64,000 nt of DNA, taken from the NCBI GenBank assembly GCA_002269645.1, contig NIVC01000781.1, positions 142,491-206,490 of the forward strand, given 5' to 3'. This DNA is from Macrostomum lignano. Its lineage: Eukaryota. Positions 31,816-64,000 of the stretch are shown in pieces. Each line of letters starts with the position of its first letter. Position 1 is the first letter of the stretch. A program made the position numbers and the translations under genes. The notes below the pieces were generated by a model. It searched no databases. It was not told the DNA's origin and was given only the letters and a program-made list of their open reading frames with translations.

Positions 31816-31831
31816 AATTTGCTATTAAAAG

Positions 31832-32593: not shown

Positions 32594-32636
32594 AACCGGA
32601 TAGTTTTATAATTTTTTATTTTTTCTACGGAAAAAA

Positions 32637-33356: not shown

Positions 33357-33360
33357 ACCC

Positions 33361-33762
33361 CTATGAAACACAGCCAAGAATAATTTCCTTGTAGGTCTTT
33401 CGTGTTTTGGTCATTGCATACAAAACAGTCATGCACAGCTCACCGCAAATATCACTGCTAAGACCTTGGAGAATAAAGTCTGAGCGATAAATTTTTTTAT
33501 TATTTTTCCCCTTCATATAATTTCTTAGCTCTTCTGGTACTGCCGTCCCATAGCTATCGAAGTAATAACACTTGTGCTTGCGATCGGGATCAATCACCCA
33601 GCAAACCCAATGAGATCCTGGCTTATCGGTGGTGTCAAAGTTCATGATGCCGCATTCTTTTCTTAGAGGAAAATCAGGCAGAGTGTCCCTCGTAAATATT
33701 CCTCTAAAGTTTGGGATTTCCAGTTCGTTAGCCAAATCTTCAAGAAAGTTATTTGTCGTCAT
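33361..33762 (-). CDS. Polinton A adenain-family cysteine protease
   Basis: GSHW (His), YFDSYG (Asp), Q-x5-CG (Gln/Cys) catalytic motifs intact. Confidence 0.92.
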   Translation of the reverse strand: MTTNNFLEDLANELEIPNFRGIFTRDTLPDFPLRKECGIMNFDTTDKPGSHWVCWVIDPDRKHKCYYFDSYGTAVPEELRNYMKGKNNKKIYRSDFILQGLSSDICGELCMTVLYAMTKTRKTYKEIILGCVS

Positions 33763-33932: not shown

Positions 33933-36900
33933 TTATCTCCAGTGCCCGAACGGTAGACTGTTAATATTGTCATCAAAAATGAATCTCTTGTTATCTGCAC
34001 CCGACAGTCCAATCTTCTTTTGCTGAATTGTGTGAATAATATGGTTTTTAGATTGTAGCTTTGAGAACTCATGTGATGTCTTTTTGTTGCAATTCAAGGC
34101 GTCCCTGTATTCAGCTTCATTAATTTCCTTCCTAACCACACGTTTCGGAATTCCCTTTGATTTTTTTATTGGGTCTGACGACTCACATTTTACAAAATAG
34201 GACTTTGCTCTCAACCCAATGAATTCCGTGATTATGTCACCAGCAATCTCGTCCTTCATTTTCCCAATCACTTTCTTGTTAGTAGCGTCAAACACTTGAT
34301 CGCCATTCTGTGTCCTGAAAGATTCATCATACTCAGACAAGTCAAACAAATCTTTTTGCTGCAGCATGTCCTGATAAATGTCTTCTGTTTGAATGTCCAT
34401 AATAAAACTGTCTGTGTCAGTGTACAAGAGTTTCATTTTATCCTTGTACTGCTGCTTCATGCCATAGAAGAACTGGTACATCAGACGTTTTGATTCGTCG
34501 AGAACAATGACACCTGTATAGATCTGCTTGCGCAGTGTCACCTTGGTTTTGTAAAATATGATCACACCCAAGTAGCTATTAAAGATATGGAGTTCTTTGA
34601 ATGTTGGCTTTGACATATTTGCTTGAATAACAGCAGGCTCTGATGAGGTAACAAGTTTCAGGTTTGTTCTTTTCCGCTCATTCTCAAGAGTCTTGCCATA
34701 GACAGAGTTGTTGGCCAACTTAAAGAGGTTCTTGTCAAACTCGTTGGTTGCTTTGGTCCTAAACTGGGTGTTCTTATCAATGTAGGGTTTCATCCACGCT
34801 TCCTCTGTAAATGTAAGAGCCCTGTGAACTTTGGTGACCCTGCAACCAAGTGAGATAAAATACTGAAGCAGTTTGTAATGGATTTTGTAACGTGTCTTGT
34901 TGTTTAGATTCTGTGTTAGTTTCTCTGTATGTTCTTTTTCTGTTCCTGACAGGCGCCAAGTTCCATTGGGAGTTTCGATTATTTTCGGACACTTGATGTT
35001 CCCTGGGAAGGGTGGAAAGTCAGGGAAATAGTCGTGAAGCTCTGGTGGAATGTAAACATCAACCTCATAAATGGCAGCCAATGAAAAGTCCCATTTGAAT
35101 TCTGATGAGGGTAGCCATCGAAAATCTCTAACTGGAAGATCTTGACTCATCGCCCACCCGTAGAGATTATTAGCGTCCAAGTAAGTAATGTAGTTTGAGG
35201 GCTGCTCCTTATTGTAAGATTCAATGTAGGGATTGTTCGCTTTTGCATACCTGTTAACACAAATTGAGATCCCCCCTCGCTTTGACGATTCGACAAAATT
35301 GTACATTTCAATATCTGTAAGAAGTTCAATGTACCAATCTGGATCTTGATCCCATTTCATTTTAAGCAAAGATTCCCAGCTAGTGGCAGGCAGAGACACA
35401 TAATGTGCTGGATCGAAGCCATATGCTGTGTACCAGGTGTATCTGAAAGTTTCAAACACATCGGCCAGCAGAAACACATCTGTGAAGAGGTAAAGCAGGT
35501 GATACTGGAAGAAGTTTTGACAATTAAAGTAATTATAGACATGCTTCGCGTGCTCATAGTCTTTGTCAGAGATTCCAGAGTCTGTTAGCTTTGAAAAGAA
35601 CTTCTCCTGTGGTGGTAAACCTTCTTCAAATACGTGATAACGAGTAATATTCTCATAGGGGTAGAAGCCTTTCTTTCTTAAAAGTTTAAATGATTCATCA
35701 GTGTTGTTAATTTTACTTGCAAATATCTTTGTATATGTACATTGTTCATCTTTTAGATTCTTGCTTAGTTCGTCTAGACTGGCAGCTAGAAATTGATATG
35801 AATCCTTCAGTCTTATTTTACCTTTACTGTTACCCGAATTATCCTGTTTAATATCAACACACTTAAACTTCTCCTTGTTCTCTGCGATGCAGTCAAGGTG
35901 TATGTCTGGAATCATGCCGATTTTTTCAACTATTAAATGCATGTCATAGTTCTTTGCGTTGTGACAAAATATCGTTAGATCATGAATGTTGGATTTTAGC
36001 TTTAGATTACAGGTGTTATGCGCTGCACCTCTAAATTTCCCAGTAAAGTGGCAGTGGTCCCTAACGGTTGGGTTTTTAATATCAGTGCAAGTTAACTGTT
36101 TCCTACAGATGTAGCAATGAGTTGCTGATAGGAAATTGCTTTCATCCTCCTCAGACATAATTATTGGAACAGGCTGAAGGGTGCTAATTACTCTTTGCAA
36201 CTCTAACATTCTGGCAATAAACTGCTCCACACACTGGTCTCCAAAGAAATAATTATACTCATCAAGTCCTTTTGTATTAATAAAGGCATATGCTACTGAA
36301 TTGAGGACATGTCTTTGAGTTTGAGTTTGTTTTTGAGTTTCTGGCATGATTGAGCATTCGAAATCAGCATATACAACAAATGGGAGCTTCTCCATCTTGT
36401 GATAGTTCTTAAAACGGAGATACTTTTCTTCAGCTGAAGGAAGAGAGCAGTTGGTCGGGTGATCCTCACATGATAATTCATGCTCTGCTAGTTTTTCAAT
36501 GCGCTCAGGTCCACTGTAATGCTTAAGGCACAAGCGGCAGATGGCAACAGCCTCGTGATGATTATTCAACTGCTTGTGAATGAGTATTGAAAGATCTTTA
36601 ATCCAAACATAGTGAGCCTCCTCTAGTAAATTACCAATCACTAGAAGATCAACCTCAGTCCGCCTTTTCCCCTCAGGATCTAAAACGTCTTTGCTACATC
36701 TGACCGGTTGAACTTTCTCAGTTTTTTCACTCCACTCAAAGACTGTGATTCTAATTTTGTTATTAAACACTTCTTCTAGTTTTGGAATCTGAGAGATCGC
36801 CAAGCCTCCTTTGTCAAACCTGATCCCCTTCTTTTCACATTCGATAAGATAGTACTTGAAATAATTTTGATAATTTGAGGTTCTTTCGGGGTGGTGAGGG

Positions 36901-37329
36901 ACACTATCATGATGAAGTGCAGAAAGAACTGCCCATAGAGCACAGCAATTGTCTTTATTTTTAACATTTATGCAAGCTTTTTTGCCGGCTAGCTTATGTG
37001 GGAGCTCTATATAAGAGGAGGCTTTAAGTGGGTCATATTTCATGACCATGACAGTAGCTCTTTGAATCCCTCCCACGACCCATCCGGAACCTCTGGATGT
37101 AAACGCTTCAATTTTCTTAGTGACATCTTGAAGGAAAGGATCCAGCGTGTCTGTAGGGGTGAATGGCTTTGCCTTTGTTGTCATGTAATACTCGAGATGC
37201 TCAGTGGGTTTCGCAGGCATATAAAACGCAATCTTGAATGATATCTGTAGTTTAAAAGTCTTGCGTGTTTTAAGTGTGTGATCAACAACTGATTGGATGC
37301 TGTCTTTATAGTCGTAGATGTTTGCGGTG
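33933..37329 (-). CDS. polB: Polinton A protein-primed DNA polymerase B, 5'-truncated by the Polinton B insertion
   Basis: YADFE, HNAKNYD, YLDANNLYG, KLANNSVYGK, YTDTDS, and an EndoVII-like CYIC...HCH...CN segment. The frame stays open from the track start (37220) up to the insertion at 37329. Confidence 0.95.
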
Positions 37330-38093
37330 AGTAGTATAGGAAAAGTAGGTTTGAGCGCAACCCATTTTGAAAAATCACAAAAAACAGATAAAAATCGACT
37401 AAAAACAGGTGAAAATTGTCTGAAAACAGTGATTTTAGTGATTTTTCAAAAGTTTTGAAAAATTGCTTTTTGCGCGATTTCGTGAGTAAAACCACAAGAA
37501 ATTTTTGATTCGTGGGTTAAAATAACCTATTTTCAGGTTTCATCATTTCAAAACTAGCATCAAATTTAATAATAGTCTTTTCTCCCATTGCATAACGCCC
37601 TTCAATAAGCCAATCTTACTAGCTTTGCTTTTAACGATCAGTCAGCTACCATCTATGCATAAAAATGGTCCACTCGAGGCATACAATGCTTTTACAAAAG
37701 TCAATAATTTGCTCCTGCACATTCGCTTTGTCCCGAGGCTTTGAAATGGCTTTAATGCTGTTCTAGATTTGTACTTAAAGATAATAGAAGACATTCAAGA
37801 ACATGGAGCGCTAATTTAAATTTTTCGTGGCAAGCATACTCGACTACTAGAGCACTAACCGCAGCACTCAACATTTCTATTGGCTGCCAAAATTTCTGCC
37901 AAAACCAAAATTTTTGCCAAAATTTCTGCCAAAAAGTGTTTGGTTTTGGCATCCAATAGGAGTGGCTCGTGCAAATCTTTTGTGTTCACCCTCTATCTAG
38001 CTGTAAAAAAAGACATAAAGTGGGCCACGCAAGTTACAAACGAACAATGCTCGCGACCCTACCTACGGACGATTTCACTAACCCTTTTCTAAA
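37330..38093 (+). repeat. Polinton B left TIR, part 1 (continues at 47260-47395)
   Basis: Near-identical reverse complement of 63231-63997. Confidence 0.95.
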
Positions 38094-38709
38094 TCCTATA
38101 TACTAAAAATGGTCTGTCTGTGTCTATCTATCTATGTGATAGATTAGAGAAAAAATGGCTGGACCGATTTTGTTCGAACTTGCACTGTTCGATCAGAAAT
38201 TTTCCCGTGACTGTACATGCATCGTGGCTAAGAAATTGCTCGATGCTAAAGGCATTAAATATTCGAAAAACATGCTTTTTTGCAAAGGTCAAGCAGCTCT
38301 TTCGACTTGAAATGCATTGTAAGAATGCTAGAGAAAAAACTGACTGGTTGAATTCTGATTCTGAAATGATTGCATCATAACTGAATTGTAACTCCGACTT
38401 GAATTGAAAATGCAGTGTGGAAGCATAGCACCAGACTTGATTTAAATTGCGTAACCATATTGTTAACTGATACTGACTGACTGAGAAACTGATTATGTCA
38501 TAACTGTTTCGTGTGATTTACTCTATGCTTGGATTTTAAAGTGTTGAATTATATAAGTGCAAAATTTGATGTTATCAAAACGATGAGAGCTAGCCTAGAG
38601 GTGAACAAACTGAACTGCTAAATGCAGCGACGATGGTTCGAATTTTCATAGAGTATAATTTTTTTAATTAAAGCTTTTCAACGTCAGGAAAACTAAAAGA
38701 CTTTTTAAA

Positions 38710-43480: not shown

Positions 43481-43547
43481 TTAGGGTTAGGTTAGGGTTA
43501 GGGTTAGGGTTAGGGTTAGGGTTAGGGTTAGGCTAGGGTTAGGGTTA
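43481..43547 (+). repeat. Interstitial (TTAGGG)n inside Helitron copy 1
   Basis: About 11 near-perfect units. Confidence 0.9.
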
Positions 43548-44344
43548 GAAGGTTGACAGATATTTTTAGATTTCCAAGGCTTATTGGGGGCATTGCTGAG
43601 ATGTCAAGGGGGGGGAATTACTGACATGTCAAGGCTTACAAGGTTTGACAAGAGATTTTTTAAGATTTCAAGGATACATGTAGCTTATTAAAAAAAATGT
43701 GTATTGCATTTCTTTGGCTCCCCAACGGGGGGCGTAGATTGCTAGTCCAATATACTAAAAATGGTCTGTCTGTGTCTATCTATCTATCTATGTGATTGAT
43801 TAGAGAAAAAATGGCTGGACCGATTTTTTTCAAACTTGCACTGTTCGATCTGAAATTTTCCCGTGACTGTACATGCATCGTGGCTAAGAAATTGCTCGAT
43901 GCTAAAGGCATTAAATATTCGAAAAACATGCTTTTTTGCAAAGGTCAAGCAAACTTTTCGACTTGAAATGCATTGTAAGAATTCTAGAGAAAAAAAAACT
44001 GACTGGTTGAATTCTGATTCTGAAATAGATTGCATCATAACTGAATTGTAACTCCGACTTGAATTGAAAATGCAGTGTGGAAGCGTAGTATCAGATTTAA
44101 CTGATACTGACTGACTGAGAAATTGATTATGTCATAACTGCTTCGTGTGATTTACTCTATGCTTGGATTTAAAAGTGTTGAATTAAATAAGTGAAAAATT
44201 TGATGTTATCAAAACGATGAGAGCTAGCCTAGAGGTGAACAAACTGAACTGCTAAATGCAGCGACGATGGTTCGAATTTTCATAGAGTATAATTTTTTTA
44301 ATTAAAGCTTTTCAATGTCAGGAAAACTAAAAGACTTTTTAAAA

Positions 44345-46100
44345 AGAAGCGTCATGTAAAAATCTTCTAGAAGCGTCATGTAAAAAATCGTGGAAGCGTC
44401 ATTTAAAAAATCATAGAAGCGTCATTTAAAAAATCATGGAAGCGTCATATAAAAATCATAGATGCGTCATTTAAAAAATCAAAGATGCGTCATTTAAAAA
44501 ATCATAGAAGCGCCATGTAAACAATCATAAAATCGTCATTTAAAAAATCATAAAAGCGTCATGTAAAAATCATAGAAGCGTCATGTAAACAATCATAAAA
44601 GCGTCATGTAAAAAATCATAGAAGCGTCATGCAAACAATCATAGAAGCGTCATATAAAAATCATAAAAGCGTCATGTAAACAATCATAGAAGCGTCATGT
44701 AAACAATCATAGAAGCGTCATGTAAACAATCATAGAAGTGTCATGTAAACAATCATAGAAGCGTCATGTAAACAATCATAGAAGCGTCATGTAAACAATC
44801 ATAGAAGCGTCATGTAAACAATCATAGAAGCGTCATGTAAACAATCATAGAAGCGTCATGTAAACAATTATAGAAGCGTCAAGAAAAAATCATAGAGGCC
44901 TCATTTAAAAAACATAGAAGCGTCATTTAAAAAATCATAGAAGCGTCATGTAAAAAATCAGAGAATCGTCATGTAAACAATCATAAAAGCGTCATTTCAA
45001 AAATCATAGAAGCGTCATATAAAAATTATAGATGCGTCATTTCAACAATCATAGAAGCGTCACAAAAAAATCATAGAAGCGTCATGTAAAAAATCATAGA
45101 AGTGTCATGTAAAAATCGTAGAAGCGTCATGCAAAAAATCATAGAAGCGTCATGTAAAAAATCATAGAAGCGTCATGTAAACAATCATAGAAGCGTCATG
45201 TGAAAAATCGTAGAAGCGTCATTTTAAAATCATGGAAGCATCATTTAAAAAATCATAGAAGCGTCATGTAAACAATCATAGAAGCGTCATGTAAACAATC
45301 ATAGAAGCGCCATGTAAAAAATCATAGAAGCGTCATCTAAAAAATCATGGAAGCGTCATTTAAAAAATCATAGAAGCGTCATGTAAAAAATCATAGAAGC
45401 GTCATGTAAAAAATCATAGAAGCGTCATGTAAACAATCATAGAAGCCTCATGTAAACAATCATAAAAGCGTCATGTAAACAATCATAGAAGCGTCATGTA
45501 AAAAATCAGAGAAGCGTCATGTAAACAATCATAGAAGTGTCATGTAAACAATCATAGAAGCGTCATGTAAACAATCATAGAAGCGTCATGTAAACAATCA
45601 TAGAAGCGTCATGTAAAAAATCAGAGAAGCGTCATGTAAAAAATCATAGAAGCGTCATGTAACAATCATAGAAGCGTCATGTAAAAATCATAAAAGCGTC
45701 ATGTAAAAATCATAGAAGCGTCATGTAAACAATCATAGAAGCGTCATTTAAAAAAGTCATAAAAGCGTCATGTAAAAAATCATAGAAGCGTCATGTAAAC
45801 AATCATAGAAGCGTCATGTAAACAATCATAGAAGCGTCATGTAAAAAATCATAGAAGCATCGTGTAAACAATCATAGAAGCGTCATGTAAACAATCATAG
45901 AAGCGTCATGTAAACAATCATAGAAGCGTCATGTAAAAAATCAGAGAAGCGTCATGGAAACAATCATAGAAGCGTCATGTAACAATCATAGAAGCGTCAT
46001 TTAAAAAATCATAGAAGCGTCATGTAAACAATCATAGAAGCGTCATATAAAAATCATAGAAGCGTCAAGAAAAAATCATAGAAGCCTCATTTAAAAACTA
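44345..46100. repeat. 23-bp satellite inside Helitron copy 2
   Basis: Same unit as 38710-42560, ~1.75 kb. Confidence 0.97.
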
Positions 46101-46992
46101 ATGAGTGTCATTTAAAAAATTAAGAAGCATCATGGTGGAATAAAAGAAGCGTCATGTCAGACATGAAGGGTGTCATGTAAAAATAAATGCAGCTATAATG
46201 CTGTGCTGGGTAGAAAAACTGAGACGTAAAGGCTCTCAGAGAATAACTGAGATTACGGGGGGGGGGGGGGTTCTGAGATGTCAAAGCAAAAGTCAGAAGC
46301 TACTTCAAAGTTCATGTACTTTACTCAATTTTTTATTGCATTCTTTGTTGGCTCGCCACGGGGGGGGGTCGCTGATAGAAGAAGAGTCATGTAAAAAATA
46401 AAAGTAGCACTATGTATACATAAAAGAAAAGTCATGTCGAAGTTAAAAGATTCATTTGGGAATTGCTACGATGTCAAAGCTTGGTGGAAATCGTTATAGT
46501 GCTGTGATTCTTAAAGAAGGAATCACTAAAATGTCAAGGCTTAGGGGAGAAGAATTGCTGAGATTTCAAGGCTTTAGGTTGGGTTAAAGTTAGGTTTAGG
46601 TCAGGTGTGGGTTGAGGGTTATATTTTATCGAGTTTCAAGGTTAACAGGGGATTTTTTAGATTTCAAGGTTTATGGGGGCCATCGCTGACATGTCAAGGC
46701 TTACGGGGGGAATAGCTGAGATGTCAAGGCTCACGGGGGTATAAATGAGATTTCAAGGCTAAAGTCAGAAGCTACATGTAGTTTATTGAAAACTTTTATT
46801 ACATTATTTGATGCCTCCTCAGGGGAGGGATCGCTGATAAAAAAAGCGTAATGTAAAAAATAAAAGAAGCTTCATGTCGAAGTTAAGATATTCATTTGGG
46901 AATCCCAACGATGTCGAGGCTTGCAGGGAATCGCTATAATGCTGTAGTAGTGCTATAATGACTCTTAGAGAGAATTACTGAAATTTCAATGC

Positions 46993-47062
46993 TTTAGGGT
47001 TGGGTTAGGGTTAGGGTTAGGGTTAGGGTTAGGGTTAGGGTTAGGCTATAGGGTTAGGGTTA
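46993..47062 (+). repeat. Interstitial (TTAGGG)n inside Helitron copy 2
   Basis: About 11 near-perfect units. Confidence 0.9.
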
Positions 47063-47259
47063 GAAGGTTGACAGATATTTTTAGATTTCCAAGGCTTATT
47101 GGGGGCATTGCTGAGATGTCAAGGGGGGGGAATTACTGACATGTCAAGGCTTACAAGGTTTGACAAGAGATTTTTTAAGATTTCAAGGATACATGTAGCT
47201 TATTAAAAAAACGTGTATTGCATTTCTTTGGCTCCCCAACGGGGGGCGTAGATTGCTAG

Positions 47260-47395
47260 TTATGTATCTTAAAAATGGAACAAATAGCAGGAGAAGTTCT
47301 CCTCAAAGCAATTTTTATATTGTGACTCAGCTTTAACGTCGTGCGAAACCCACACTGAGTGAAGCGTATGGTCAAATAGGCTCTCGCAGGAACTC
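47260..47395 (+). repeat. Polinton B left TIR, part 2
   Basis: Reverse complement of 63095-63230; resumes exactly where part 1 stops (CTAAA|TTATGTATC). Confidence 0.92.
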
Positions 47396-50069: not shown

Positions 50070-53000
50070 ATGGAACAACTCAGAAAGATTAGTGATGAAG
50101 AATTTGAACAATACATTCAAGCTGAGCGGTTTCGGCGTCAGCAGCAAAAGCACACAGATAATGAGCCTATAGCGGAGTCCAAAGAAGATGAAGTGGCAGC
50201 TCCGCAGATTGGTGATGAAATAATACTATATAAATCCTTTAGAGAGAAGTATAATAAGAAGTCAGAAATTTCAGAGTATGTCATTAGGAATGTTAATGAA
50301 GGTTATATAACAAAGGTTTTTATTCAGTATAAAGATGCAATTAAAGCAGTGTTAGAGAAAGTTAGAGATGGTGGACGGAGTAAGTTCAACTTGCATTTTG
50401 AACTAGAATTCAAAAAGAATTTTAACGAAGACATTCCTCCCTTCACAGTCTATGACAATGAAAGTGGATTCTACAATATTCAGTCAGATTCACAGTATGA
50501 CACTGCCCTTAGCGAAAGACAGGAGACATTGGAAAAGTTCATTGATGAGTTCTGTGAGAAGGGATCAGATAATGTCTTTGTGCAGATAAAATCTATCTAC
50601 ATCAGAGTTGCCAAGGTTTCTAGCATTCAGGGAGGATCCTTCTTTACTAACAATGAAATTAAAAAATGTCGATCAATTCTTAACATTCAGAATGATGATG
50701 AGAAATGCTTCCTCTGGTGTGTATTAGCTGTTAAACATCCACAAAATAAAGATGGTTATCGAGTGTCAAAATATAAACCATATGAAAAAGAACTTAATCT
50801 CACCGATATCCAATTCCCCATGAGAATAAAAGATATAAAAAAGTTTGAAAGACTAAATGAAGAGTTTGCTGTTAATGTGCTGTATTATGAAGGTAAATTC
50901 CCAGATACACTACAACATCTCTATGTCTCACCTCATAATCAACGAACTTATGTAGTAGATTTACTATACCTGGAGGAAGATGGTAACACTCATTATTGTC
51001 TGATAAAAAATCTTACAACATTAGTTTCAAAACAAACTGGAAAGCGTGTAAATCACAAGTCATTTTTATGCAGAACATGCATGACTGTTTACACAAGTGA
51101 AAACGTGTTGGCCGAGCACTCAAGGTTGTGCGGTAAAAATGCACCCGGTCTTTATATATTACCCAAGGAAGAATCGAAGCTGAAATTTAAGAATCATATA
51201 TTCAAACTAAAGCTACCCATCGCTATCTATGCTGACTTTGAAGCAACAACTGAACCCATTGAAGCACAAAGTAAAAGCTTCACTAAGATTTTAGACAAAG
51301 AGTCATATACTCTAAAAGTAGCAAATCAGAACGCAATAGCTTACGGTTTTTATATCCATTCTGAGTTACCCAAGGTAATTAAATCGAAGTATGAAGGATA
51401 TTGTGGCACAGATGCCAAGGAAAAATATGTTGATAGAATGGTTGAAATTTATCAACAAATTAAGAATGGTCTGAAGGAGCCTAAGCATATTAATCATAAT
51501 TTGACATCGCAAGAGGAGGCTTCTTTCTGTAAGGCTAAACAATGCTACATATGCGAGAAGGAGTTTGATATGGTTCCAGATATGAAGGTGCATGTGAAGG
51601 AAATTGACAGTAAAGTTACTATAGAATCTTGGTGCAAAAAATGTCTGAACAAGAGCAATAATATAAGTAAATATAAGATCACAAAGCAACAATGGAAAGA
51701 GTTTTACAGGGCTGAAAAATGTGCGAATTGTAAAAATGACTTTACACTTAAGCTAGGTAAGGTAAGAGAACATTGTCACTATAGTGGCAAATATAGAGGG
51801 GCTGCCTGTAAATCCTGCAATGCTCTCGAGAGTAAGAAGCGAGTAATCCCAATCTACTTCCAGAATGGATCCCACTATGACTTTCACTTCTTAGTGACAC
51901 ATTTAAAGAGCAAAGAGACCATGGAGGATAAGTTATTTCCTCCACTATCTAAAACTTCTGAAGAGTACATTTCTCTGGAGTTTGGTTGTAACAAAGTAGT
52001 ACTGAGGTTCCTAGATTCATACAGGTTCTTGGCTTCCTCGCTGGATATCTGCGCAAAGTCCCTGAAGGATGAAGACTTCATCATAACAAAGAAATACTTT
52101 AAAAACGACAGCGATTTTCAATATGTTAAGCGCAAGGGGGTGTTACCATATGAGTATATCAACAGCTTTGGAAGATTAGCAGAAACTGAGTTACCACCAT
52201 TGAAAGAGTTTTACTCGAGGTTGAAAGGTGAAGACATTTCTTCAGATGAATATGATTTTGCAAAACAAATGTGGAAAACTTTTAGTTGTAAGAATTTGGA
52301 GGATTATATGATGCTGTATCTTAAGGTTGACGTTCTATTATTAGCAGATGTATTCGAACGCTATAGAACATTCTTCCTGAAACACTTTGAGATTGATCCA
52401 GCCAGATGCTTCTCAGCACCAGGATTGAGTTGGAATGCTGGGTTGAAGAAAAGTAAAGTTGAGTTAGACTTGCTGGCGGATATCGATATGATTCATATGA
52501 TTGATAGTGGAATAAGAGGTGGATTTAGCGGAGTTCTAGGGTCACGATATGTAAAGGCAAATAATCCTTATCTTCCAGGCTATGATTTAGAAAAACCAAC
52601 TTCCTACTTACTTTACGTTGATTGTACAAATCTCTATGGTTATAGTATGTTGGAACCCCTTCCTTTTTCTGACTTTAAATGGGAAGCTGATTCCAACTAT
52701 TATAAAAATCCTCCTGAAGGACGGGGCTGTCTTGTTGAATGTGATCTTGAATATACAAAAGAATCAAAAAAGAAAACGTATGCCTTCCCATTAGCACCTG
52801 AAAGTACAACTGTGTCAGAAAGTGAATTGAGTGAATATCAGAAAGGATGTCTAGAAGTCGAAATGAAAAAGATTGGAAAAGTTCCTAAATTGATCCTTAA
52901 TTTAAAAAATAAAACAAAATATATCGTACATCATAAGCTATTGCGATTCTATGAAGAGATGGGCTTGAAAGTGACAAAAGTACATAGGACGATTTCATTC

Positions 53001-53897
53001 AATGAAAAGCCATGGTTAAAGGAGTATATCGAGTTTAATACGATAGAAAGAAAGAAGGCAAAAGAAGCAAAAATTGAGTTCGAAGACAGTCAGTTCAAAA
53101 TGCTTAATGTAAGCATCTTTGGCAAGACAATGGAGGATGTTAAAAAGAGAAAGCGATTTGAGTTGCTGACAAGTGAGGATGAGATATCTAAGATAATATC
53201 CAAGCCAGATTTCATAGACTTCAAAATCTTCAATGAAAATCTAATTTGCATTCACCAGCGACCTAAGAATATCCCTCTTGGAACAAAGCCAACATACGCT
53301 GGACAAGCAATTCTGGATCTCTCGAAATTGCATATGTATGAAACATTTTACAAAGTTTTCAAGTCCAAATGGGGGGATAATGTTGAGATTGTTACCTCTG
53401 ACACCGACTCATTCATTCTTCATATAAAGACAGAAAATATTTATAAAGACATTGCTCAGATGAAGGAGAGTTTCGATTTGTCGCTGTATACAAAAAATTT
53501 TCCGATTGATTTACATGATATGACTAATTGTGGAAAGCTGGGAACATTCAAGGATGAATTGGCAAAATATGATTGCATAATGACAGAAGTAACCGCTCTA
53601 AGATCGAAAGCATATTCATTTAAAACAGTTTATGTCAGCACTCAAAAGGAAGGGAAGGAAGAGAAAAAATTAAAGGGAATCTCAAAGTCAACAGTGAAGC
53701 ATCATGTACAATATGATGACTATAGAAATATACTACTTGATTATAACGAACCAGTCTATAGGAAAGTGTATAGCCTTAGATCAGACAAGCATAACATGAC
53801 TTTAATAGAACAAAATAAGAAGGCTATTAGTCCTTTCGATGACAAAAGATACATTGAATCCAATGGAATTATAACACATCCTCATGGATTCAAATAA
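50070..53897 (+). CDS. polB: Polinton B protein-primed DNA polymerase B (1275 aa, intact)
   Basis: YADFE, NGSHYD, DSYRFL, YVDCTNLYG, KMLNVSIFGK, TSDTDS; EndoVII-like Zn segment. Confidence 0.96.
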   Translation: MEQLRKISDEEFEQYIQAERFRRQQQKHTDNEPIAESKEDEVAAPQIGDEIILYKSFREKYNKKSEISEYVIRNVNEGYITKVFIQYKDAIKAVLEKVRDGGRSKFNLHFELEFKKNFNEDIPPFTVYDNESGFYNIQSDSQYDTALSERQETLEKFIDEFCEKGSDNVFVQIKSIYIRVAKVSSIQGGSFFTNNEIKKCRSILNIQNDDEKCFLWCVLAVKHPQNKDGYRVSKYKPYEKELNLTDIQFPMRIKDIKKFERLNEEFAVNVLYYEGKFPDTLQHLYVSPHNQRTYVVDLLYLEEDGNTHYCLIKNLTTLVSKQTGKRVNHKSFLCRTCMTVYTSENVLAEHSRLCGKNAPGLYILPKEESKLKFKNHIFKLKLPIAIYADFEATTEPIEAQSKSFTKILDKESYTLKVANQNAIAYGFYIHSELPKVIKSKYEGYCGTDAKEKYVDRMVEIYQQIKNGLKEPKHINHNLTSQEEASFCKAKQCYICEKEFDMVPDMKVHVKEIDSKVTIESWCKKCLNKSNNISKYKITKQQWKEFYRAEKCANCKNDFTLKLGKVREHCHYSGKYRGAACKSCNALESKKRVIPIYFQNGSHYDFHFLVTHLKSKETMEDKLFPPLSKTSEEYISLEFGCNKVVLRFLDSYRFLASSLDICAKSLKDEDFIITKKYFKNDSDFQYVKRKGVLPYEYINSFGRLAETELPPLKEFYSRLKGEDISSDEYDFAKQMWKTFSCKNLEDYMMLYLKVDVLLLADVFERYRTFFLKHFEIDPARCFSAPGLSWNAGLKKSKVELDLLADIDMIHMIDSGIRGGFSGVLGSRYVKANNPYLPGYDLEKPTSYLLYVDCTNLYGYSMLEPLPFSDFKWEADSNYYKNPPEGRGCLVECDLEYTKESKKKTYAFPLAPESTTVSESELSEYQKGCLEVEMKKIGKVPKLILNLKNKTKYIVHHKLLRFYEEMGLKVTKVHRTISFNEKPWLKEYIEFNTIERKKAKEAKIEFEDSQFKMLNVSIFGKTMEDVKKRKRFELLTSEDEISKIISKPDFIDFKIFNENLICIHQRPKNIPLGTKPTYAGQAILDLSKLHMYETFYKVFKSKWGDNVEIVTSDTDSFILHIKTENIYKDIAQMKESFDLSLYTKNFPIDLHDMTNCGKLGTFKDELAKYDCIMTEVTALRSKAYSFKTVYVSTQKEGKEEKKLKGISKSTVKHHVQYDDYRNILLDYNEPVYRKVYSLRSDKHNMTLIEQNKKAISPFDDKRYIESNGIITHPHGFK

Positions 53898-54230: not shown

Positions 54231-54971
54231 TTAATTGTAGGGAGGTGCACTTGGAGCATTTGATTGAAGATTGAGTGTTGCCGAGTACTCTTTTGGCTTA
54301 TCAGCTAGACCCAATTTTTCTCTCAGATCTTTTTCTAGTAATTCCTTTTTAATTTTTTCCTTCGCTGAATGACCAAGTCTACTCTCTTTGAGGATTTTAT
54401 CAACGACTTCCGAATGGTTAACTTCTTCAGGCGCAACACAGGCGTCTAACAATTGATCTCTTTTTTCTCTGTATTCTGAATAAATTGCAGCAGCTGCTTG
54501 AACCTCTTCAAGAGTTAATCTATAATCATCAACTGCTTTTTGGGAGTAAATATACAATCTCTCTCTGTATTGATTTGCCAGATCTCTGAGAACAATGTAT
54601 TTTGCCTTCTGCTTTTGGCAATGAATTTTCACAGTTGCAAACAACGACGTGGATTTTACAGCTTCAAAACCACTCATTGCCCCGATTACTACTCCAATAA
54701 CTAAGGGATTCAATGTCAGTATCGATGTTGCTATGCCAATTCCTGTAGCAGCCAAGAGACTTACATTTCCTGTCACAATGTTGATCCAATTTATCCTGCT
54801 ACTTTGCCGTTTGTACTTTTTTACCTTTTTGCTATAAATTGTAAGATCTTTAGTAATGCATTCAATACTGCCTTTGATTTCACCCTTTCTCTGATTGAAA
54901 TAGTCCCGCTCCCTCAAATCTGCTTCATGCAGCTCAACCACAGGATAGATGTGTTCATTTTTTTCATTCAT
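54231..54971 (-). CDS. Polinton B conserved membrane protein with YPx3L and PSAP motifs
   Basis: Likely true start MNEKNEHIYPVVEL (TAAAAATG at 54971); hydrophobic hairpin NIVTGNVSLLAATGIGIATSILTLNPLVIGVVIG; C-terminal APSAPPYN. Confidence 0.7.
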   Translation of the reverse strand: MNEKNEHIYPVVELHEADLRERDYFNQRKGEIKGSIECITKDLTIYSKKVKKYKRQSSRINWINIVTGNVSLLAATGIGIATSILTLNPLVIGVVIGAMSGFEAVKSTSLFATVKIHCQKQKAKYIVLRDLANQYRERLYIYSQKAVDDYRLTLEEVQAAAAIYSEYREKRDQLLDACVAPEEVNHSEVVDKILKESRLGHSAKEKIKKELLEKDLREKLGLADKPKEYSATLNLQSNAPSAPPYN

Positions 54972-54973
54972 TT

Positions 54974-56379
54974 TTATGTGGCGATTATGTCTAAAATCGG
55001 ATAAAGTTGAAAGCCTGAAACAATAAGAACGTTGATCCTTCAGTGGCTGAATTAATATGCACTCTATAACGGAGAATTTTTCGGTGGAAGCTACTTCAAA
55101 ATATTTCATGACTCCAGGAACTAAACCAGCGTTTTCGGTAGAAAAAATATTCCTAAAGTCTCTCTTGTTATTGCTCCCTTTCAGAATAAAACTTTTTGGT
55201 TGATTTTTTATAATTTCACTACCTACTGCTTTGGTTCCTTTCAATCCGAATTTCCAAATTTGAATAGACTCGGGAAGTTGTACTTCAATGTAAGAATTGG
55301 GTTCATTCCTCGATGCCCATTCTGAATTAGATACTATATAACCCCAATTATCTGACGTTTCAAATGCTCCTGATGACGCTACATTGAAACCCCTTTCTCT
55401 ATAGTTTTGACGTGTTGCTAGTGAGGGAATATATCCTGTATAAGATTTGAAACCTAGTCCCCGCCTTAGTCGCAGCTCCACTGATTCAAGTGCATTGTCT
55501 ACGTATAGCTTTGGTACAGCTTGAAGTCTATCTATAGGCCACACTAAATCATTAACCACTGTTTGTCTCTCAAGTAATTCAACTTTTGTAAGCTTTACGG
55601 AACCAGAAAAATTAAGAGAATAATGGAAATAATATGAGGGATTGGGTATTTTTTTCCTAAGATGTGCATTGCCCTTCGTAGTTCAATGGGTGCACTTTGT
55701 TCAACAGGTGTCCAGTTTGTTCCATTTAGGCTCACACTAACAGACCAACCAGGCCACACCTCTCCTTCCAACTTTATCTCTACAACTTTCCTAGCTCTTT
55801 TCAAAAATTGAAATCGTATCCACTTGTCTGAGTCATCTACACTGCTCCATCTGAAGCTGGGTTTGAATCTGCAACATGATATGCTGCTGAAGAGTTATGA
55901 GAAGCGGTCACTTTCATGTCAGAATGGGAAGCGTTTGAAGTCAGTAATGAAAGAATATTGACTAATTTCGAACTCTCTGTACCTCCCGCAGTACCTTGCC
56001 TTTCTGCTAACAAAGTGTCAATTTCGGTTTTAGAATACATCTTAGTGTCAATTTCGGTTTTAGAATACATCTTAGTGTCAATCTCAGTTTTAGAATACAT
56101 CTTAGTGTCAGTTTCGGTTTTTGTGTAGACATTGTTTACGCGCCCATGAGCATCGTCAATTAATTGTAGCATGGTGATATTCATTGCGTCACTATCTTCC
56201 TTTGAATAAGAGTCTGAAACATTTCTCTTTGCTAACAATAAATTATCTATTTCCTCTCTCTTATATCCTTCATTTTCATTGATGTATCGATCATCAGCTA
56301 ACGCTATTGTTATTCCAGGTGCTATATCATTTGAATTTGACGAGTAACCAAATTGATTGGCAGTATTCTTGTAACTCAT
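54974..56379 (-). pseudogene. Polinton B fibre/receptor-binding protein (YSKTEIDTK repeats plus two discoidin/F5-8-like domains), broken by ~4 frameshifts
   Basis: Reconstructed: ...AYHVADS/PSFRWSSVDDSDKWIRFQF.../NPSYYFHYSLNF...VNDLVWP...WASRNEPNSYIEVQLP...FS/YRVHINSATEGSTF/IVSGFQLYPILDIIAT*. Confidence 0.7.
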
Positions 56380-56806
56380 TTTAATTGCTGCAAAATTTCA
56401 TTATAGCTATCTCCTTTATCGATTCGGTGTAAAAAGTACAGCGACATTTGACCACAAATTTCTTATCAAAAGTTTGAATTTGTTCTTCCATGTCTCCACA
56501 TATTCTATTCTTTGTGTGATTAAACTTTTCCATAATTTCCAGTGTGGGCGGTAGTGCATAGGAATCAAAAAAATAAACCTTATCAGGAGCTGAAAATATA
56601 GCTGAATGATGTATACCCCGTTCTTTCGAAGTGTGAATATTTGTCATAAAGTAACCATACTGTGGTAAATCAACAATTTCATCTCTCATGGCATAGCGAA
56701 ATGGTTTTAACTTGAGATATTTTGCCCAATTTATCAGATCAATATTAGTCGTAGTGTCAGTCCCAAACTTTTGTTTAAATGCATTCCATGTCTCAGCTTC
56801 GCTCAT
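56376..56806 (-). pseudogene. Polinton B adenain protease with one frameshift before the catalytic Cys
   Basis: GIHHSA, FFDSY, QIQ. Adding one T at AAATTTGTGG (~56455) restores KFCGQMSLYFLYRIDKGDSYNEILQQLK*. Confidence 0.85.
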
Positions 56807-56815
56807 TTTTAACAC

Positions 56816-58335: not shown

Positions 58336-59109
58336 TTACAATGGGATTTTAGTTAGAACATCCTTATACAAATCTTGCTCATCCTCATCAGCTCTTGTAT
58401 TTATATAGATATAGCCATACTTCTTTTTCCAAGCCTCTCTACATTTAGCCTTGAATATAGCGGGTTCATAATTCGTTTCTATATTTCTAGCAATGTGATT
58501 TAAGTTTGTATCTTTTTGTTTAAAGATTATGTAACATGTCGTATTCTCCCTGACAGTATTGCGATCTAGTTTGGTAAAATTTTGAGCTAGATAAAAACCA
58601 CAACAGTTTCCATGCCTGCCTCTCTGAAACAGACTTTCCTGAAATGTTTGATTAGCCTCTCCCAAAACATCATCCAATATCACACATGTCTTTAGTCCAT
58701 TATGAAAAATTTCTTCATTTGGAGTATGGGAAAGAGTGACAGGAATTTTCTCTATTACTTCTGAATTTTCTGATGTGCTTTGCACTCGACCAGGGTTGGC
58801 TGCCTCTCGACAAATATGTCTAATATCTTCAGGAGATGCATCCTCACTCACCTGGTAGACATGATAGAGTGAGTTGATAAGAGAAGGTGGGAGACCATTT
58901 TCAAAGCCATATTTTAGAAACTGATACTCTGGATCCATTTGAGATGCTCTGGGAACATATAAAACTAACTCATTAAAGTCAACTAGTTTTTCAGGACTTG
59001 TAAGAATATGGAATAGTAAATATGTTTTACCCGTATTTGTAGCGCCGATAATACAACATAAAAGAGGATTAGGGAAAATAGGATCATGCTGAAATTTTAC
59101 TTTGGGCAT
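58336..59109 (-). CDS. Polinton B A32/FtsK-HerA-like packaging ATPase
   Basis: Walker A GATNTGKT, Walker B CVILDD, RGRH, YLAQ. Confidence 0.92.
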   Translation of the reverse strand: MPKVKFQHDPIFPNPLLCCIIGATNTGKTYLLFHILTSPEKLVDFNELVLYVPRASQMDPEYQFLKYGFENGLPPSLINSLYHVYQVSEDASPEDIRHICREAANPGRVQSTSENSEVIEKIPVTLSHTPNEEIFHNGLKTCVILDDVLGEANQTFQESLFQRGRHGNCCGFYLAQNFTKLDRNTVRENTTCYIIFKQKDTNLNHIARNIETNYEPAIFKAKCREAWKKKYGYIYINTRADEDEQDLYKDVLTKIPL

Positions 59110-59130: not shown

Positions 59131-60490
59131 TTATTCGACGCGGGTCATTTGATATTCACTGGTAACTTTTATTACATTCTTTGTTTGTTCAAGAATTAGT
59201 GCAAAAGCAGTCAGCTCAACATTTGTTGACTTCTTGATAAATAATTGAATATTCACTCCACTCTTGACAGAAACTCATCTGAGCTGTTAGATCAAAGCAA
59301 AAGATTGGATAGATGGTTAGAAAGTCTTGTTTATTGAATGGAGGAGTTACACCGAAACGGCTGCAGATGTCTCGTACATTTCATACGCTCTGTGAATGTC
59401 TTGAGCTACTGGATCAATTTCAACATAATCATTCGGATACATCACCTGATTTAATCTGACTTGAAGCTGGGTTATTTTCACTGCATTTGCTCCAGTTTTG
59501 TAAGACACATACTTGTGATCATTAACTATATATGATGGGTTGTTTACGTCATATTTGAAAGCTACAAAGATTGCAAGTGGCATATTGGAGATGTTGGCTA
59601 TGTTCCATGTATATGGACTTCCTTGAATGAGTTGTGGCGGAACCGTTACCCTCTCTGGAAATGATACTGTAATGTCCTTGTTGAGTGATTTTAGAAAAGC
59701 TGCTTCAGCACTGGGTGACAAAGTAATAGCAGGGATCCAAATCTCAAAGCTATTAATAGTTAACTTAGCTTCCGTCCCGGCAGCTCCAAAGAAAATTTCA
59801 GCATCGTTAGTCTTTCTTGTCCATGTGAATTTATATTTAATTCCTTTGCTAATCTTCTGCCAATCAAGGAACCCAATGAGGGTGTTAATGATAGTTTGAT
59901 TGTTCCACCTCTGTTTGGAGCATTAGTGACATTGTTATAATTTTCAAGCCTCCTAATGTATCCAGTATTCGAATCCTTCTTATTGAGTCTATTTTTCATA
60001 GCGATTGCTGCAGTTCTCACAGCTTCAGCATCTGCGTTGTTTGCTAGAGTATATCAGAAACAGTCCCAGCATCTCCAGTGTCTGGAATCCATCCGTATGC
60101 TTCTCCAACTTCATTCATTAATTTTGAGTACATTACGGACTTTAAGATTGTGTCATACTCTCCAGGATCATTATAGACTTTCTTTGTTCCTCCAATGTCA
60201 ACTATGAGTTGAGAGAAAAGTCTCATAGGCCAATTATGTTCTAGAGTAATGTTCGTATTCAAGTCGGTGTTATCTCGTTGTGTTATTGAGTATTTTATAC
60301 AACCGAATGCCTCTGACATGAGAATGTATGACTCTGTTGAATTGACTTCATGAACTATTTGACCTCCTGCAACATTGAGATTATTAGTGCTACCTGGAGT
60401 TGGAGAAATCTTAATATAGTCTTCTTTCTTTTTGAAAAAGCTAAAAGTTTTGTCCTCATATAGATTCAGTATATCCTTTTTGTTCTCCAT
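59131..60490 (-). pseudogene. Polinton B major capsid protein (double jelly-roll type), several frameshifts
   Basis: Track ORFs 60044-60490, 59760-60020 and 59347-59721 plus hand-read segments (IGFLDWQKISKGIKYKFTWTRK; NHPIFCFDLTAQ; SGVNIQLFIKK...TRVE*) total ~450 codons. Confidence 0.8.
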
Positions 60491-60509
60491 TTTTATAGAG
60501 AAATTTCAA

Positions 60510-60962
60510 CTAAGCTTCATGAGGTCTAAGAATTATCCCATTACCCTGTTTCTCCTTTTCAACTTTAAAAGTCTTTAGCAGCCACTTGACTGCTTCGCTG
60601 GGTACTTGTTCGACTCTTTTAGCCGCATCAACTAATACTCCACTCCCTTGAGCCTTTTTCAACTCTTCTAGTTTTTGCCGTTCAATGCTTTCTATTGTCT
60701 TATTATGCTTAGCATTGTTGGCTGTATTAACACTTTTTGCAATCATTGTACCAACTCCTGAGGCTGCTCCGATACCACCCAAAATTGCTGGTAGTAAGCC
60801 TAATAGAGGAATTATTCCACCTTCATGTTCTTTCTGTTTCTCTTGCAATTCTCGAATCTTCTCTTTAGAAAGATATTGCTTTTGCTTATTTACAGTAACA
60901 TATCTTGGTTTTCCCTCTCGAACATATCGATTGAGTCTTGCTTCAGTGTTTTTCTCGCTCAT
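60510..60962 (-). CDS. Polinton B adenovirus pX-like/membrane-active protein candidate
   Basis: GGIIPLLGLLPAILGGIGAASGVG resembles the adenoviral pX GG-hydrophobic C-terminal segment. Confidence 0.6.
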   Translation of the reverse strand: MSEKNTEARLNRYVREGKPRYVTVNKQKQYLSKEKIRELQEKQKEHEGGIIPLLGLLPAILGGIGAASGVGTMIAKSVNTANNAKHNKTIESIERQKLEELKKAQGSGVLVDAAKRVEQVPSEAVKWLLKTFKVEKEKQGNGIILRPHEA

Positions 60963-60970
60963 TTTTAAGG

Positions 60971-61393
60971 TCAGAATTTCTTCAAACCATTGCCTTGTCT
61001 CAAAGACACTTGAGACTGTTCTGCTGTTCCTAGAGCCTTTTTAACAATATCTTGAATAGCCTTATTTGATTGAGAAGCTATCTGTTGCTCTTCTTCCATT
61101 CTTTTCTTTGCTTCTTTATCTCTACGTTTCTTTTTAATATATTCCAGTTCCTCACCTGCTTTAGACATGTCACTGTATGATTTCTTCGCATCGAATATGT
61201 TCTTCGCTGTGGTAGCTGTTTTACCTATTGCATCAGCTCCACTCACAATTTTACTTCCATGATTTGATAAAAAGTTTGTGACACCACTGATCATATCACC
61301 AATTCCTTCACCCTCTTTATCAGCTAGTAGTTGTGAATCAGACGTTTCAATCTGACCTTTCGCCCGTTTGCAGTTTGTTCGATAGGCGCTCAT
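60971..61393 (-). CDS. Polinton B small amphipathic-helix virion protein candidate
   Basis: Likely start MSAYRT (TAAAAATG at 61393); EGEGIGDMISGVTNFLSNHGSKIVSG; similar to A 30469-30843. Confidence 0.6.
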   Translation of the reverse strand: MSAYRTNCKRAKGQIETSDSQLLADKEGEGIGDMISGVTNFLSNHGSKIVSGADAIGKTATTAKNIFDAKKSYSDMSKAGEELEYIKKKRRDKEAKKRMEEEQQIASQSNKAIQDIVKKALGTAEQSQVSLRQGNGLKKF

Positions 61394-62705
61394 TTTTAGT
61401 TGAAAAATTTGCTGGTAGAAGCTGGGATTTGTAAAATGATCCAATGATTTCTTCTCCATTCTCATCCTCAATAATGTAGGTTATGGGATTGGAGTAAACT
61501 ATTTTCTTTATCCTAAACACTTCTGAAATTTTCCAATATCCTCTTCGACCCTTTTCAAAGTGCTCCTTATATCTATAGATATGAACTTTGTCACCTACTT
61601 TGAAGTTTGGTTTCTCATTTGAATACTCGAAAGTTGGCTTTGGTACTCGCTCAGGATGTTTAGATGCTTCTGAAGGAGTTATCAGAATCTCAGAATGGAT
61701 TGTGTTGTTGTATTTTTCAACAATAGCTGGCAATGTGTGGAGCCACTTCTGATTACCCTGTAGATCAAATTCAAACCAGAGTTTATTTGTGAGAGTACGA
61801 TTGAACCTCTCAATCATTGCATTCTTGGACTCGCCATAAATTGAAAACATCTTGTTAATATATTCACCCCTTTCATCCTTCTTTCTAATGTTGTCTTTTG
61901 AAAACGAGTATAGCTTGTACATATGCTGATTATAAAACTCCTTGCCTTCATCTACACAAAGTCTCTCTGATCGTCTTCCTGATTCCTTAAATACTTTTTG
62001 GAAAGCTTCTGCAACTTCCGCTCCCGTCTTTGTTTTCAAAGGAACTGCCCAGGCGTAACGTGTAAAACCATCTATGATAGTGAGAGCATATTTGTAACCT
62101 CTTTCGGGCGGTAGGATAATGATATCTGCATGCCAAATTGTGTCTTTTGCATAGTGAATCATTTTTCTAAATACTCTTGGCTTTCTGTATTCCCTATGCA
62201 ATTTTACTGCATCTTCATAGCTAAGACCCTTACCATAAATTGTTAGACAGTCTATACAATTGTTGGGGTTGTGAGTATGAATTCCTAATCCAAACCGAAC
62301 TTTAGCATTGATAATACGCTTTACTAGATTTCTAATGAGTCTCTCCTTTACCGACAAGTCGCTGGTTGGAATAGCATCTAAATCAGCTATCATTTTTTCA
62401 TCAGCAATATGCTTCTTTGCTAGGGCTTCCTCTGGAGTTGAAGACGTCTTTTCAGCATCTCTATAGCTTTTGTCATGATAGTAAGCAGTCCAATCAATTG
62501 GATTAATTGGTAGACTATCATACCGAGGCCAGTCTGTAATTGGATTGAGTCTCTTGTCTAAATTTGTACCTGGGCCAGTGAAAGAATACCCTGGAATATG
62601 AAATTCGCCAGGATATTTTCCAGTGGCGAAGATGGGTGGTAGTTTTGTTATAGCTGACTGAATATCCAATGCAGAACCTAGAAATAATGGTTTACTGAAG
62701 GCCAT
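61347..62705 (-). CDS. Polinton B parvovirus-type phospholipase A2 domain fused to retroviral-like DDE integrase
   Basis: GYSFTGPGT and DWTAYYHDKSY (PLA2 Ca-loop and HD dyad); WHADI, CVDEG, IERFNRT (DDE); FKVGDKV C-terminal domain. Confidence 0.92.
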   Translation of the reverse strand: MAFSKPLFLGSALDIQSAITKLPPIFATGKYPGEFHIPGYSFTGPGTNLDKRLNPITDWPRYDSLPINPIDWTAYYHDKSYRDAEKTSSTPEEALAKKHIADEKMIADLDAIPTSDLSVKERLIRNLVKRIINAKVRFGLGIHTHNPNNCIDCLTIYGKGLSYEDAVKLHREYRKPRVFRKMIHYAKDTIWHADIIILPPERGYKYALTIIDGFTRYAWAVPLKTKTGAEVAEAFQKVFKESGRRSERLCVDEGKEFYNQHMYKLYSFSKDNIRKKDERGEYINKMFSIYGESKNAMIERFNRTLTNKLWFEFDLQGNQKWLHTLPAIVEKYNNTIHSEILITPSEASKHPERVPKPTFEYSNEKPNFKVGDKVHIYRYKEHFEKGRRGYWKISEVFRIKKIVYSNPITYIIEDENGEEIIGSFYKSQLLPANFSTKNERLSNKLQTGERSD

Positions 62706-63094: not shown

Positions 63095-63997
63095 GAGTTC
63101 CTGCGAGAGCCTATTTGACCATACGCTTCACTCAGTGTGGGTTTCGCACGACGTTAAAGCTGAGTCACAATATAAAAATTGCTTTGAGGAGAATTTCTCC
63201 TGCTATTTGTTCCATTTTTAAGATACATAATTTAGAAAAGGGTTAGTGAAATCGTCCGTAGGTAGGGTCGCGAGAGCATTGTTCGTTTGTAACTTGCGTG
63301 GCCCACTTCATGTCTTTTTTTACAGCTAGATAGAGGGTGAACACAAAAGATTTGCACGAGCCACTCCTATTGGATGCCAAAACCAAACACTTTTTGGCAG
63401 AAATTTTGGCAAAAATTTTGGTTTTGGCAGAAATTTTGGCAGCCAATAGAAATGTTGAGTGCTGCGGTTAGTGCTCTAGTAGTCGAGTATGCATGCCACG
63501 AAAAATTTAAATTAGCGCTCCATGTTCTTGAATGTCTTCTATTATCTTTAAGTACAAATCTAGAACAGCATTAAAGCCATTTCAAAGCCTCGGGACAAAG
63601 CGAATGTGCAGGAGCAAATTATTGACTTTTGTAAAAGCATTGTATGCCTCGAGTGGACAATTTTTATGCATAGATGGTAGCTGACTGATCGTTAAAAGCA
63701 AAGCTAGTAAGATTGGCTTATTGAAGGGCGTTATGCAATGGGAGAAAAGACTATTATTAAATTTGATGCTAGTTTTGAAATGATGAAACCTGAAAATAGG
63801 TTATTTTAACCCACGAATCAAAAATTTCTTGTGGTTTTACTCACGAAATCGCGCAAAAAGCAATTTTTCAAAACTTTTGAAAAATCACTAAAATCACTGT
63901 TTTCAGACAATTTTCACCTGTTTTTAGTCGATTTTTATCTGTTTTTTTGTGATTTTTCAAAATGGGTTGCGCTCAAACCTACTTTTCCTATACTACT
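63095..63997 (-). repeat. Polinton B right TIR (903 bp)
   Basis: Reverse complement of 37330-38093 plus 47260-47395 with few differences. Confidence 0.95.
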
Positions 63998-64000
63998 GCG

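Follow-up and report, generated by a model that had tools for sequence, protein, structure and literature searches.

A Polinton gene of Macrostomum lignano joins a phospholipase A2-like domain to a retrovirus-type integrase across a conserved GxG motif

A single reading frame in a 64-kb stretch of Macrostomum lignano DNA joins a phospholipase A2 (PLA2)-like domain to a retrovirus-type integrase. The whole stretch of 64,000 nucleotides is referred to as the window. Counting from the right end of a Polinton/adintovirus element, designated element B, the fusion ORF is the first gene, and it represents a real, conserved and apparently undescribed variant of Polinton gene organisation. The two domains lie in one frame, both active sites are conserved, and a [KR]-(L/F)-G-x-G motif sits at the domain boundary and is repeated in small ORFs. 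The ORF is probably the normal integrase gene of a Polinton lineage, encoding a packaged PLA2-integrase precursor that is cut by the maturation protease. For animal Polintons with a retrovirus-type integrase, the fusion family offers a concrete and testable answer to how integrase is loaded into the particle and delivered to the incoming genome, as it supplies a precursor, a candidate cut site and a candidate protease.

The fusion ORF is sequentially composed of the following parts.

61347..62705 (-): PLA2-integrase fusion ORF, 452 aa, 52.7 kDa, stop-free
62292..62606 (-): PLA2-like domain, matched by Pfam at aa 34-110 and with helices in the model up to aa 137-138
62280..62297 (-): candidate cleavage site 1, R-F-G-L|G-I, aa 137-142, conserved family-wide
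62247..62273 (-): His/CxxC spacer separating the GxG motifs of sites 1 and 2, aa 145-153, clade-specific
62223..62240 (-): candidate site 2, I-Y-G-K|G-L, clade-specific, P4 not conserved
61410..62222 (-): rve integrase; D194, D252 and E299 invariant in 30 homologues, followed by a C-terminal beta-strand domain

The earlier note on this DNA had described one uninterrupted ORF for PLA2 and a DDE integrase, and both this description and its motif positions hold. The frame runs through 452 aa with no stop, and both Pfam domains score above the curated cut-offs: Phospholip_A2_4 (PF08398) at aa 34-110 with an E of 1.3e-8, and rve (PF00665) at aa 186-262 with an E of 7.1e-10. A calcium-loop-like GYSFTGPG lies at 62591-62568 (-) in the PLA2 domain, which also contains DxxAxxHDxxY. 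FGLGI is found at 62294-62280 and IYGKGL at 62240-62223. In the model of the fusion protein (mean pLDDT 75), two folded parts are joined by a low-confidence connector at aa 139-158 (pLDDT <50). A frameshift signal at the Macrostomum lignano locus was considered and rejected, since the fusion is in frame and its linker holds neither a slippery heptamer nor a homopolymer run.

Judged by its residues, the PLA2 half has the active-site set of a secreted-type PLA2, namely a His-Asp pair, a tyrosine, a second aspartate and a calcium loop. The motif D71-x-x-A74-x-x-H77-D78-x-x-Y81 is present. H77, D78, Y81 and D102 are invariant in an alignment of 50 proteins, D71 is also invariant in an alignment of 30 homologues, and the HD pair is kept in 60 of 62 in-frame fusions. 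The domain resembles the VP1-unique PLA2 of parvoviruses in belonging to PF08398 and in possessing the GxG calcium-loop motif and the HD pair. However, its calcium loop has a phenylalanine where parvovirus VP1 has a tyrosine, and it is attached to an integrase, whereas the parvovirus PLA2 is attached to a capsid protein. Structural matches of the PLA2 are weak. When the domain was folded alone, the top match was rice PLA2 (2wg7_A; Z 7.4, rmsd 3.8, 90 aligned residues), tied with helical pairs, and Foldseek returned an E of 0.63 only. A sequence search against solved structures gave nothing significant, with parvovirus VP1 (9me0_A) aligning weakly at E 0.66.

The integrase half matches foamy virus integrase (4bac, E 7e-15) and the integrases of MELD virus (E 1.5e-19) and mavirus (E 2.2e-14) in Foldseek. 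Its DDE spacing is lengthened by a subclade insertion. No Chromo domain was detected in the fusion ORF by Pfam, nor did the last 117 aa yield a match with the threshold relaxed to E 10, and close relatives in the alignment of 30 homologues terminate at the same point. The C-terminal part is occupied by the integrase, and neither the fusion ORF nor the neighbouring ORFs match a pX-like domain.

Element B is inserted in the polymerase gene of a second Polinton, element A, forming a nested insertion. The main features of the two elements are:

33361..33762 (-): protease of element A in an open frame, bearing His, Asp, Gln and Cys motifs; Peptidase_C5, E 1.3e-4
33933..37329 (-): PolB of element A, into which element B has inserted; frame open up to the B terminal repeat
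37324..37329 (+): probable 6-bp target-site duplication GCGGTG, left flank; GCG on the right side at 63998-64000, where the window ends
37330..38112 (unstranded): left terminal inverted repeat of element B, starting AGTAGT; resumes at 47260-47395 after a 9-kb insertion
50070..53897 (+): element B PolB, open, 1275 aa; 31% identical to element A PolB (1168 aa, E 1e-151)
56381..56815 (-): adenain/Ulp1-like maturation protease of element B, frameshifted, with its similarity spread over two frames
58336..59109 (-): element B A32-type packaging ATPase; Pox_A32, E 6.9e-6
59347..60505 (-): element B major capsid protein gene, broken across three frames; DJR-like, E 6e-11, in the last piece
60510..61471 (-): two small ORFs with no significant Pfam match and repeated GxG-hydrophobic motifs
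63212..63997 (unstranded): right terminal inverted repeat of element B, ending ACTACT; similarity continues to 63095

Gene content identifies element B as a Polinton / Maverick / adintovirus, with PolB, rve integrase, DJR capsid, ATPase, cysteine protease and long inverted repeats. The repeat arms are about 780 bp long and identical at 775 of 783 aligned bases. A 6-bp target-site duplication is a feature of Polintons. The net length of the element is about 17.5 kb, because the 9-kb insertion splits its left repeat. The two small ORFs at 60510..61471 are probable core-protein precursors. At 61347-61471 (-), the last part of the fusion ORF and the upstream part of the following reading frame (60971-61471) occupy the same DNA, and the first ATG of that frame lies in the overlap region. 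Element A, at 27815-37329, contains an ATPase, an intact protease, capsid-like ORFs and PolB, the last matching DNA_pol_B_2 in Pfam. The 64-kb window holds no further PLA2 or integrase sequence.

Like the adintoviruses of Starrett et al. 2021 (PMC8502044), element B combines a VP1-like PLA2, an rve integrase, an adenain, an FtsK/A32 ATPase, PolB, a hexon and inverted repeats. There, adintovirus PLA2X is a gene of its own with a C-terminal pX-like domain; the fusion ORF differs in having the integrase in the place of the pX-like domain and no chromodomain. The lack of a C-terminal chromodomain also sets it apart from the adintovirus integrase as defined by Buck et al. 2024 (PMC11071296). The terms "fused", "fusion" and "cleav" are absent from the main text of PMC8502044, whose genome-map figures could still show a fused gene. 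The -1 frameshifts put forward in the accessible portion of PMC11071296 concern Penton and Hexon-Adenain and leave PLA2-integrase out. A full-text literature search found no description of a PLA2-integrase fusion or its recoding, which preprint supplements, subscription papers or Repbase may mention. None was found in the available portions of PMC3671162, 10.64898/2026.06.19.733378, 10.64898/2026.10.13.758929, PMC5803895, PMC11131425, 10.1101/2023.08.22.554363, PMC11161782 and PMC11296320. Clusters with this architecture, under automatically assigned names, already exist in databases.

Domain searches indicate that the arrangement is common and not peculiar to the Macrostomum lignano locus. 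Both Pfam domains occur in 28 of 100 homologues. Profiles built here detect PLA2 plus integrase in 66 of 247 proteins from three pooled homologue sets, the query included, and three Atlas clusters with PLA2 plus rve have 184, 111 and 72 members. The in-frame homologues span 30 to 79% identity. Those at 76-79% make an assembly artefact very unlikely.

A stop loss or an assembly indel in a decaying copy might have merged two neighbouring genes by accident. Other genes of the element B copy are indeed frameshifted, and in-frame forms are rare in a sister group dominated by PLA2-only ORFs: among the best 120 of 583 matches to the PLA2 of protein P0141, in-frame clusters represent 28 member sequences and PLA2-only clusters 5268. 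However, the homologues mentioned above retain the frame through linkers of 31 to 103 aa (62 in-frame fusions), and the stretch from aa 105 to 182 of the fusion ORF lacks a Met from which a separate integrase could start. The counts of 28/100 homologues, 66/247 proteins and three Atlas clusters therefore lead us to reject an accidental join at the locus, which is largely refuted and extremely improbable.

The fusion may have arisen more than once. On a tree of 56 chosen integrase domains, the PLA2 label appears in several places and requires 7 changes, at least 3 of them forced by strong branches, which suggests independent repeated origin. AU tests did not reject a single origin for the PLA2 fusions (p 0.054) or for a set of protease fusions described below (p 0.185). 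Among 53 candidates for short stand-alone relatives of the query PLA2, just 2 fragments turned up, and an Atlas search with rve clusters left out gave only scores <0.9. Named eukaryotic relatives of the P0141 PLA2, among the matches listed, belong to Mya arenaria and Nymphon striatum. A tblastn search of phages and plasmids was negative, and no relative came up in either of two scans across bacterial and archaeal genomes.

The linker was compared in 62 of the 66 fusions, excluding two reversed fusions and two with internal deletions. A GxG is present in 54 of the 62 linkers. By comparison, shuffled linkers contain it in 9.1 cases on average and 19 at most (1000 shuffles), and integrase windows of equal length predict 0.3. 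After dereplication at 50% identity, 22 of 24 linkers have the GxG. When GG is counted as well, 56 of 62 linkers follow the mavirus-type GX|G / GG|X rule at the domain boundary. The family-wide motif is (K/R)(L/F)Gx|G; among the 54 linkers that have it, P4 is K/R in 46 and P3 is L/F in 47. In the query this motif is site 1, RFGL|GI, which is located directly after the last PLA2 helix of the model, where the low-confidence linker starts. G139 is invariant and G141 is found in at least 90% of 30 aligned homologues. With K/R at P4, the conserved upstream site departs from the M/I/L P4 rule of adenoviruses.

The earlier note had instead placed the cut at site 2, reading IYGK|GL as an adenain-consensus site, and had named FGLGI second. 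The match is exact in the query, and a GxG-hydrophobic sequence occupies the same position in five of six close relatives, always behind the short His/CxxC spacer. The spacer is found in the query, P0001, P0003, P0004, P0009 and P0102. P0002, which is 79% identical to the query, lacks both the spacer and an IYGK|G-type site. The site is thus confined to the closest clade, and its P4 varies among N, I, S, L and H. A strict adenovirus-type (M/I/L) site of any kind is present in just 13 of 62 linkers. Shuffling shows how readily such a site arises by chance: a 33-aa linker contains one in 2.7% of cases when the whole protein is shuffled and in 12% when the linker alone is, and 34% of shuffles have one somewhere in the protein. 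Taken alone, the IYGK|G match is weak evidence. In the small ORFs of the elements, the M/I/L form is not enriched (1 found vs 0.57 expected). A potential GK|G site in the mavirus protein MV13, reported in PMC6048507, speaks for the IYGK|G version. On balance, a functional cut at IYGK|G under an adenovirus-like (M/I/L)xGx|G rule is doubtful, and the conserved boundary motif is the one that had been named second.

Several comparisons bear on whether the boundary motif is a protease signal. Six small ORFs of elements A and B together contain 7 copies of the [KR]xGxG-hydrophobic form where 0.17 would be expected (0 of 5000 shuffles). These ORFs lie around the capsid and ATPase genes and have no Pfam names, and the group was defined after the motifs had been seen. 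Capsid and enzyme ORFs, 4229 aa in total, contain none. In addition, nine integrases (P0051, P0055, P0057, P0059, P0062, P0063, P0119, P0140 and P0195) are fused to an adenain-like protease instead of PLA2, with weak Peptidase_C5 matches in eight. A GG or GxG is present at the junction in all nine, compared with one of 15 unfused integrases whose N-terminus is long enough. These protease-integrase-chromo fusions occupy two separate places in the tree. Two reversed integrase-chromo-PLA2 fusions, P0161 and P0244, both carry a GxG at the junction, and the motif at their free PLA2 C-terminus is degenerate or lost, a comparison of two related proteins.

Mavirus provides a precedent. According to Born et al. 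2018 (PMC6048507), the mavirus protease MVP cuts GG|X and GX|G, and the virions carry the integrase MV02 and the lipase-like hydrolase MV13. MV13 was found there as two fragments with the potential GK|G site between them, and two GXG sites stayed uncut. The proteases of mavirus and element B are related. Mavirus differs from the fusion ORF in having separate integrase and hydrolase genes, an alpha/beta-fold hydrolase and a protist host.

The small ORFs, the protease fusions, the reversed fusions and the mavirus precedent, each indirectly, all point to a protease signal. Alternatively, the fusion could be real but function without being cut. The GxG would then cap the PLA2 helix structurally or act as a hinge where it ends, and the PLA2 would serve the intact integrase as a tag for packaging or membrane targeting. 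The motif marks the end of the PLA2 domain and could therefore be a helix cap inherited with it. The uncut reading fits the 8 of 62 in-frame fusions whose linkers lack a GxG, most of which keep the first Gly, and the linkers of P0034 and P0040, which place the motif only a few residues ahead of the integrase. It also fits the PLA2-only ORFs, where the motif again accompanies the PLA2 (100 of 102, among the best 120 of 583). However, an uncut fusion would not account for the enrichment of the same motif in unrelated small ORFs, for GG/GxG at protease-integrase junctions that contain no PLA2, or for loss of the motif in the two cases where PLA2 is C-terminal. We regard it as unlikely, and cleavage of the precursor as the better reading. 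The literature searched yielded no protease specificity for an animal Polinton. The motif counts suggest a Polinton-specific cleavage motif, [KR]xGx|G-hydrophobic, which predicts processing of the small, unannotated core proteins.

The sister group was recovered by searching with the PLA2 of P0141, which yielded 583 proteins. The best 120 were examined, and the 119 new ones include 102 PLA2-only proteins and 17 in-frame fusions. All but two of the PLA2-only proteins end in the same GxG motif followed by a short, usually Lys-rich tail. Fifty-six distinct tails start at the Lys run, and 39 of these have at least 5 positions. For 14 of the 39, reading the tail in a shifted frame can yield the junction peptide of an in-frame sibling, with every position matching or only one failing, against 7% of random tails. 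Examples match at 16/16, 11/11 and 10/10 positions in -1 and at 8/8 in +1. Both registers thus occur in the sister group, and the two largest clusters have tails too short for this test. An earlier position-profile test of the tails was weak, with 10 of 75 significant in -1 and 10 of 75 in +1. A last-residue test found 7 against 27.8 expected, a result exaggerated by the position of the Lys runs near the start of the tails. The -1/+1 classes in the same analysis were hand-written patterns, drawn up once the data had been seen.

Read in this way, many of the tails are starts of integrase in a shifted frame, so the integrase coding sequence would often begin inside the end of the PLA2 ORF, displaced by one base. 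Many PLA2-only proteins then look like out-of-frame fusions, and the PLA2-only set is not an independent control for the motif. The junctions are consistent with programmed frameshifting or slippage and hint at Gag-Pol-like recoding; decay or homopolymer errors are possible sources of the shifted-frame tails. Should the shifted junctions be programmed, many PLA2 and integrase genes that count as "separate" in animal genomes would form a single recoded gene. A GG or GxG also directly precedes the PLA2 in 95 of the 102 PLA2-only proteins (best 120 of 583), and together with the motif behind the domain this raises the possibility that the lipase is trimmed at both ends. The corresponding stretch near aa 11 in the fusion protein of the window is degenerate. 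In P0248-P0366 (best 120 of 583), a Cys-rich N-terminal domain, DUF5679, lies ahead of the PLA2.

The fusion may be how Polinton-like viruses bring integrase into the particle. The precursor would be packaged through its PLA2/core part and cut by the adenain-like protease at RFGL|GI during maturation. If both GxG sites were cut, the second at IYGK|GL, the 19-aa His/Cys spacer peptide, which contains Cys, would also be released. On entry, the freed PLA2 (~15 kDa) would act on the endosomal membrane, and the basic integrase (~35 kDa, pI 9.4) would stay with the genome and integrate it, generating a 6-bp duplication. Element B has broken protease and capsid genes, so processing would need the protease of another copy. 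The earlier note had likewise proposed that the integrase is packaged together with an endosome-escape lipase and freed by the maturation protease, which would couple entry to integration. This logic is plausible. Its polyprotein idea gains support from the linker GxG and the mavirus precedent, and the predicted cut moves from IYGK|G to RFGL|GI.

The endosomal role would follow that of parvovirus VP1, as described in PMC8502044. The cleaved PLA2 could instead serve egress, passage of the nuclear envelope or remodelling of the host cell, in which case entry and integration would not be coupled. In favour of such a role, the entry function is taken over from VP1, and the literature searched contained no assay of a Polinton PLA2. 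It is nevertheless very unlikely, given that the catalytic residues are conserved as in parvovirus VP1 and that 10.64898/2026.06.19.733378 lists a phospholipase as a capsid-associated gene of the virus group.

The proposed processing invites comparison with retroviruses. In retroviral Gag-Pol, the integrase forms the tail of a precursor that brings it into the particle, and the viral protease releases it. The integrase of the fusion ORF shares its fold with retroviral integrase, as seen in the foamy virus match. In contrast to Gag-Pol, element B is of a DNA virus type, its cysteine protease is encoded by a separate gene, the carrier is a lipase rather than Gag, and the fusion ORF is in frame with no slippery site at the Macrostomum lignano locus. 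We tentatively raise the possibility that Polintons have converged on a Gag-Pol strategy, in which integrase is loaded as a fusion to a virion-core partner and released at [KR]xGx|G, and the junction sets the lipase:integrase ratio. The partner would be PLA2, in either order, or the protease itself. The ratio would be fixed at 1:1 in the lineage of the query. The abundant sister lineage would use programmed frameshifting or polymerase slippage at the Lys/A-rich run, and its two parts would be annotated as separate genes.

Additional features were observed in the window. Related ORFs at 54231-55559 (-) in element B and 32637-33356 (+) in element A share a hydrophobic segment (21% identity over 98 aa, E 9.5e-6) and possibly encode a second membrane-active protein. 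The 9-kb insertion in the left repeat of element B (about 38092-47259) consists of two related units in tandem, and each of them contains a 23-nt satellite array. It starts with TC and ends in a hairpin plus CTAG, and we take it to resemble a non-autonomous Helitron. Pieces of host genes sit among many minisatellite arrays: WD40 repeats at 10207-10692 (-), a calcineurin-like phosphatase at 19341-19859 (+), and a GINS subunit of the Sld5 family at 25452-25856 (+; E 2e-9).
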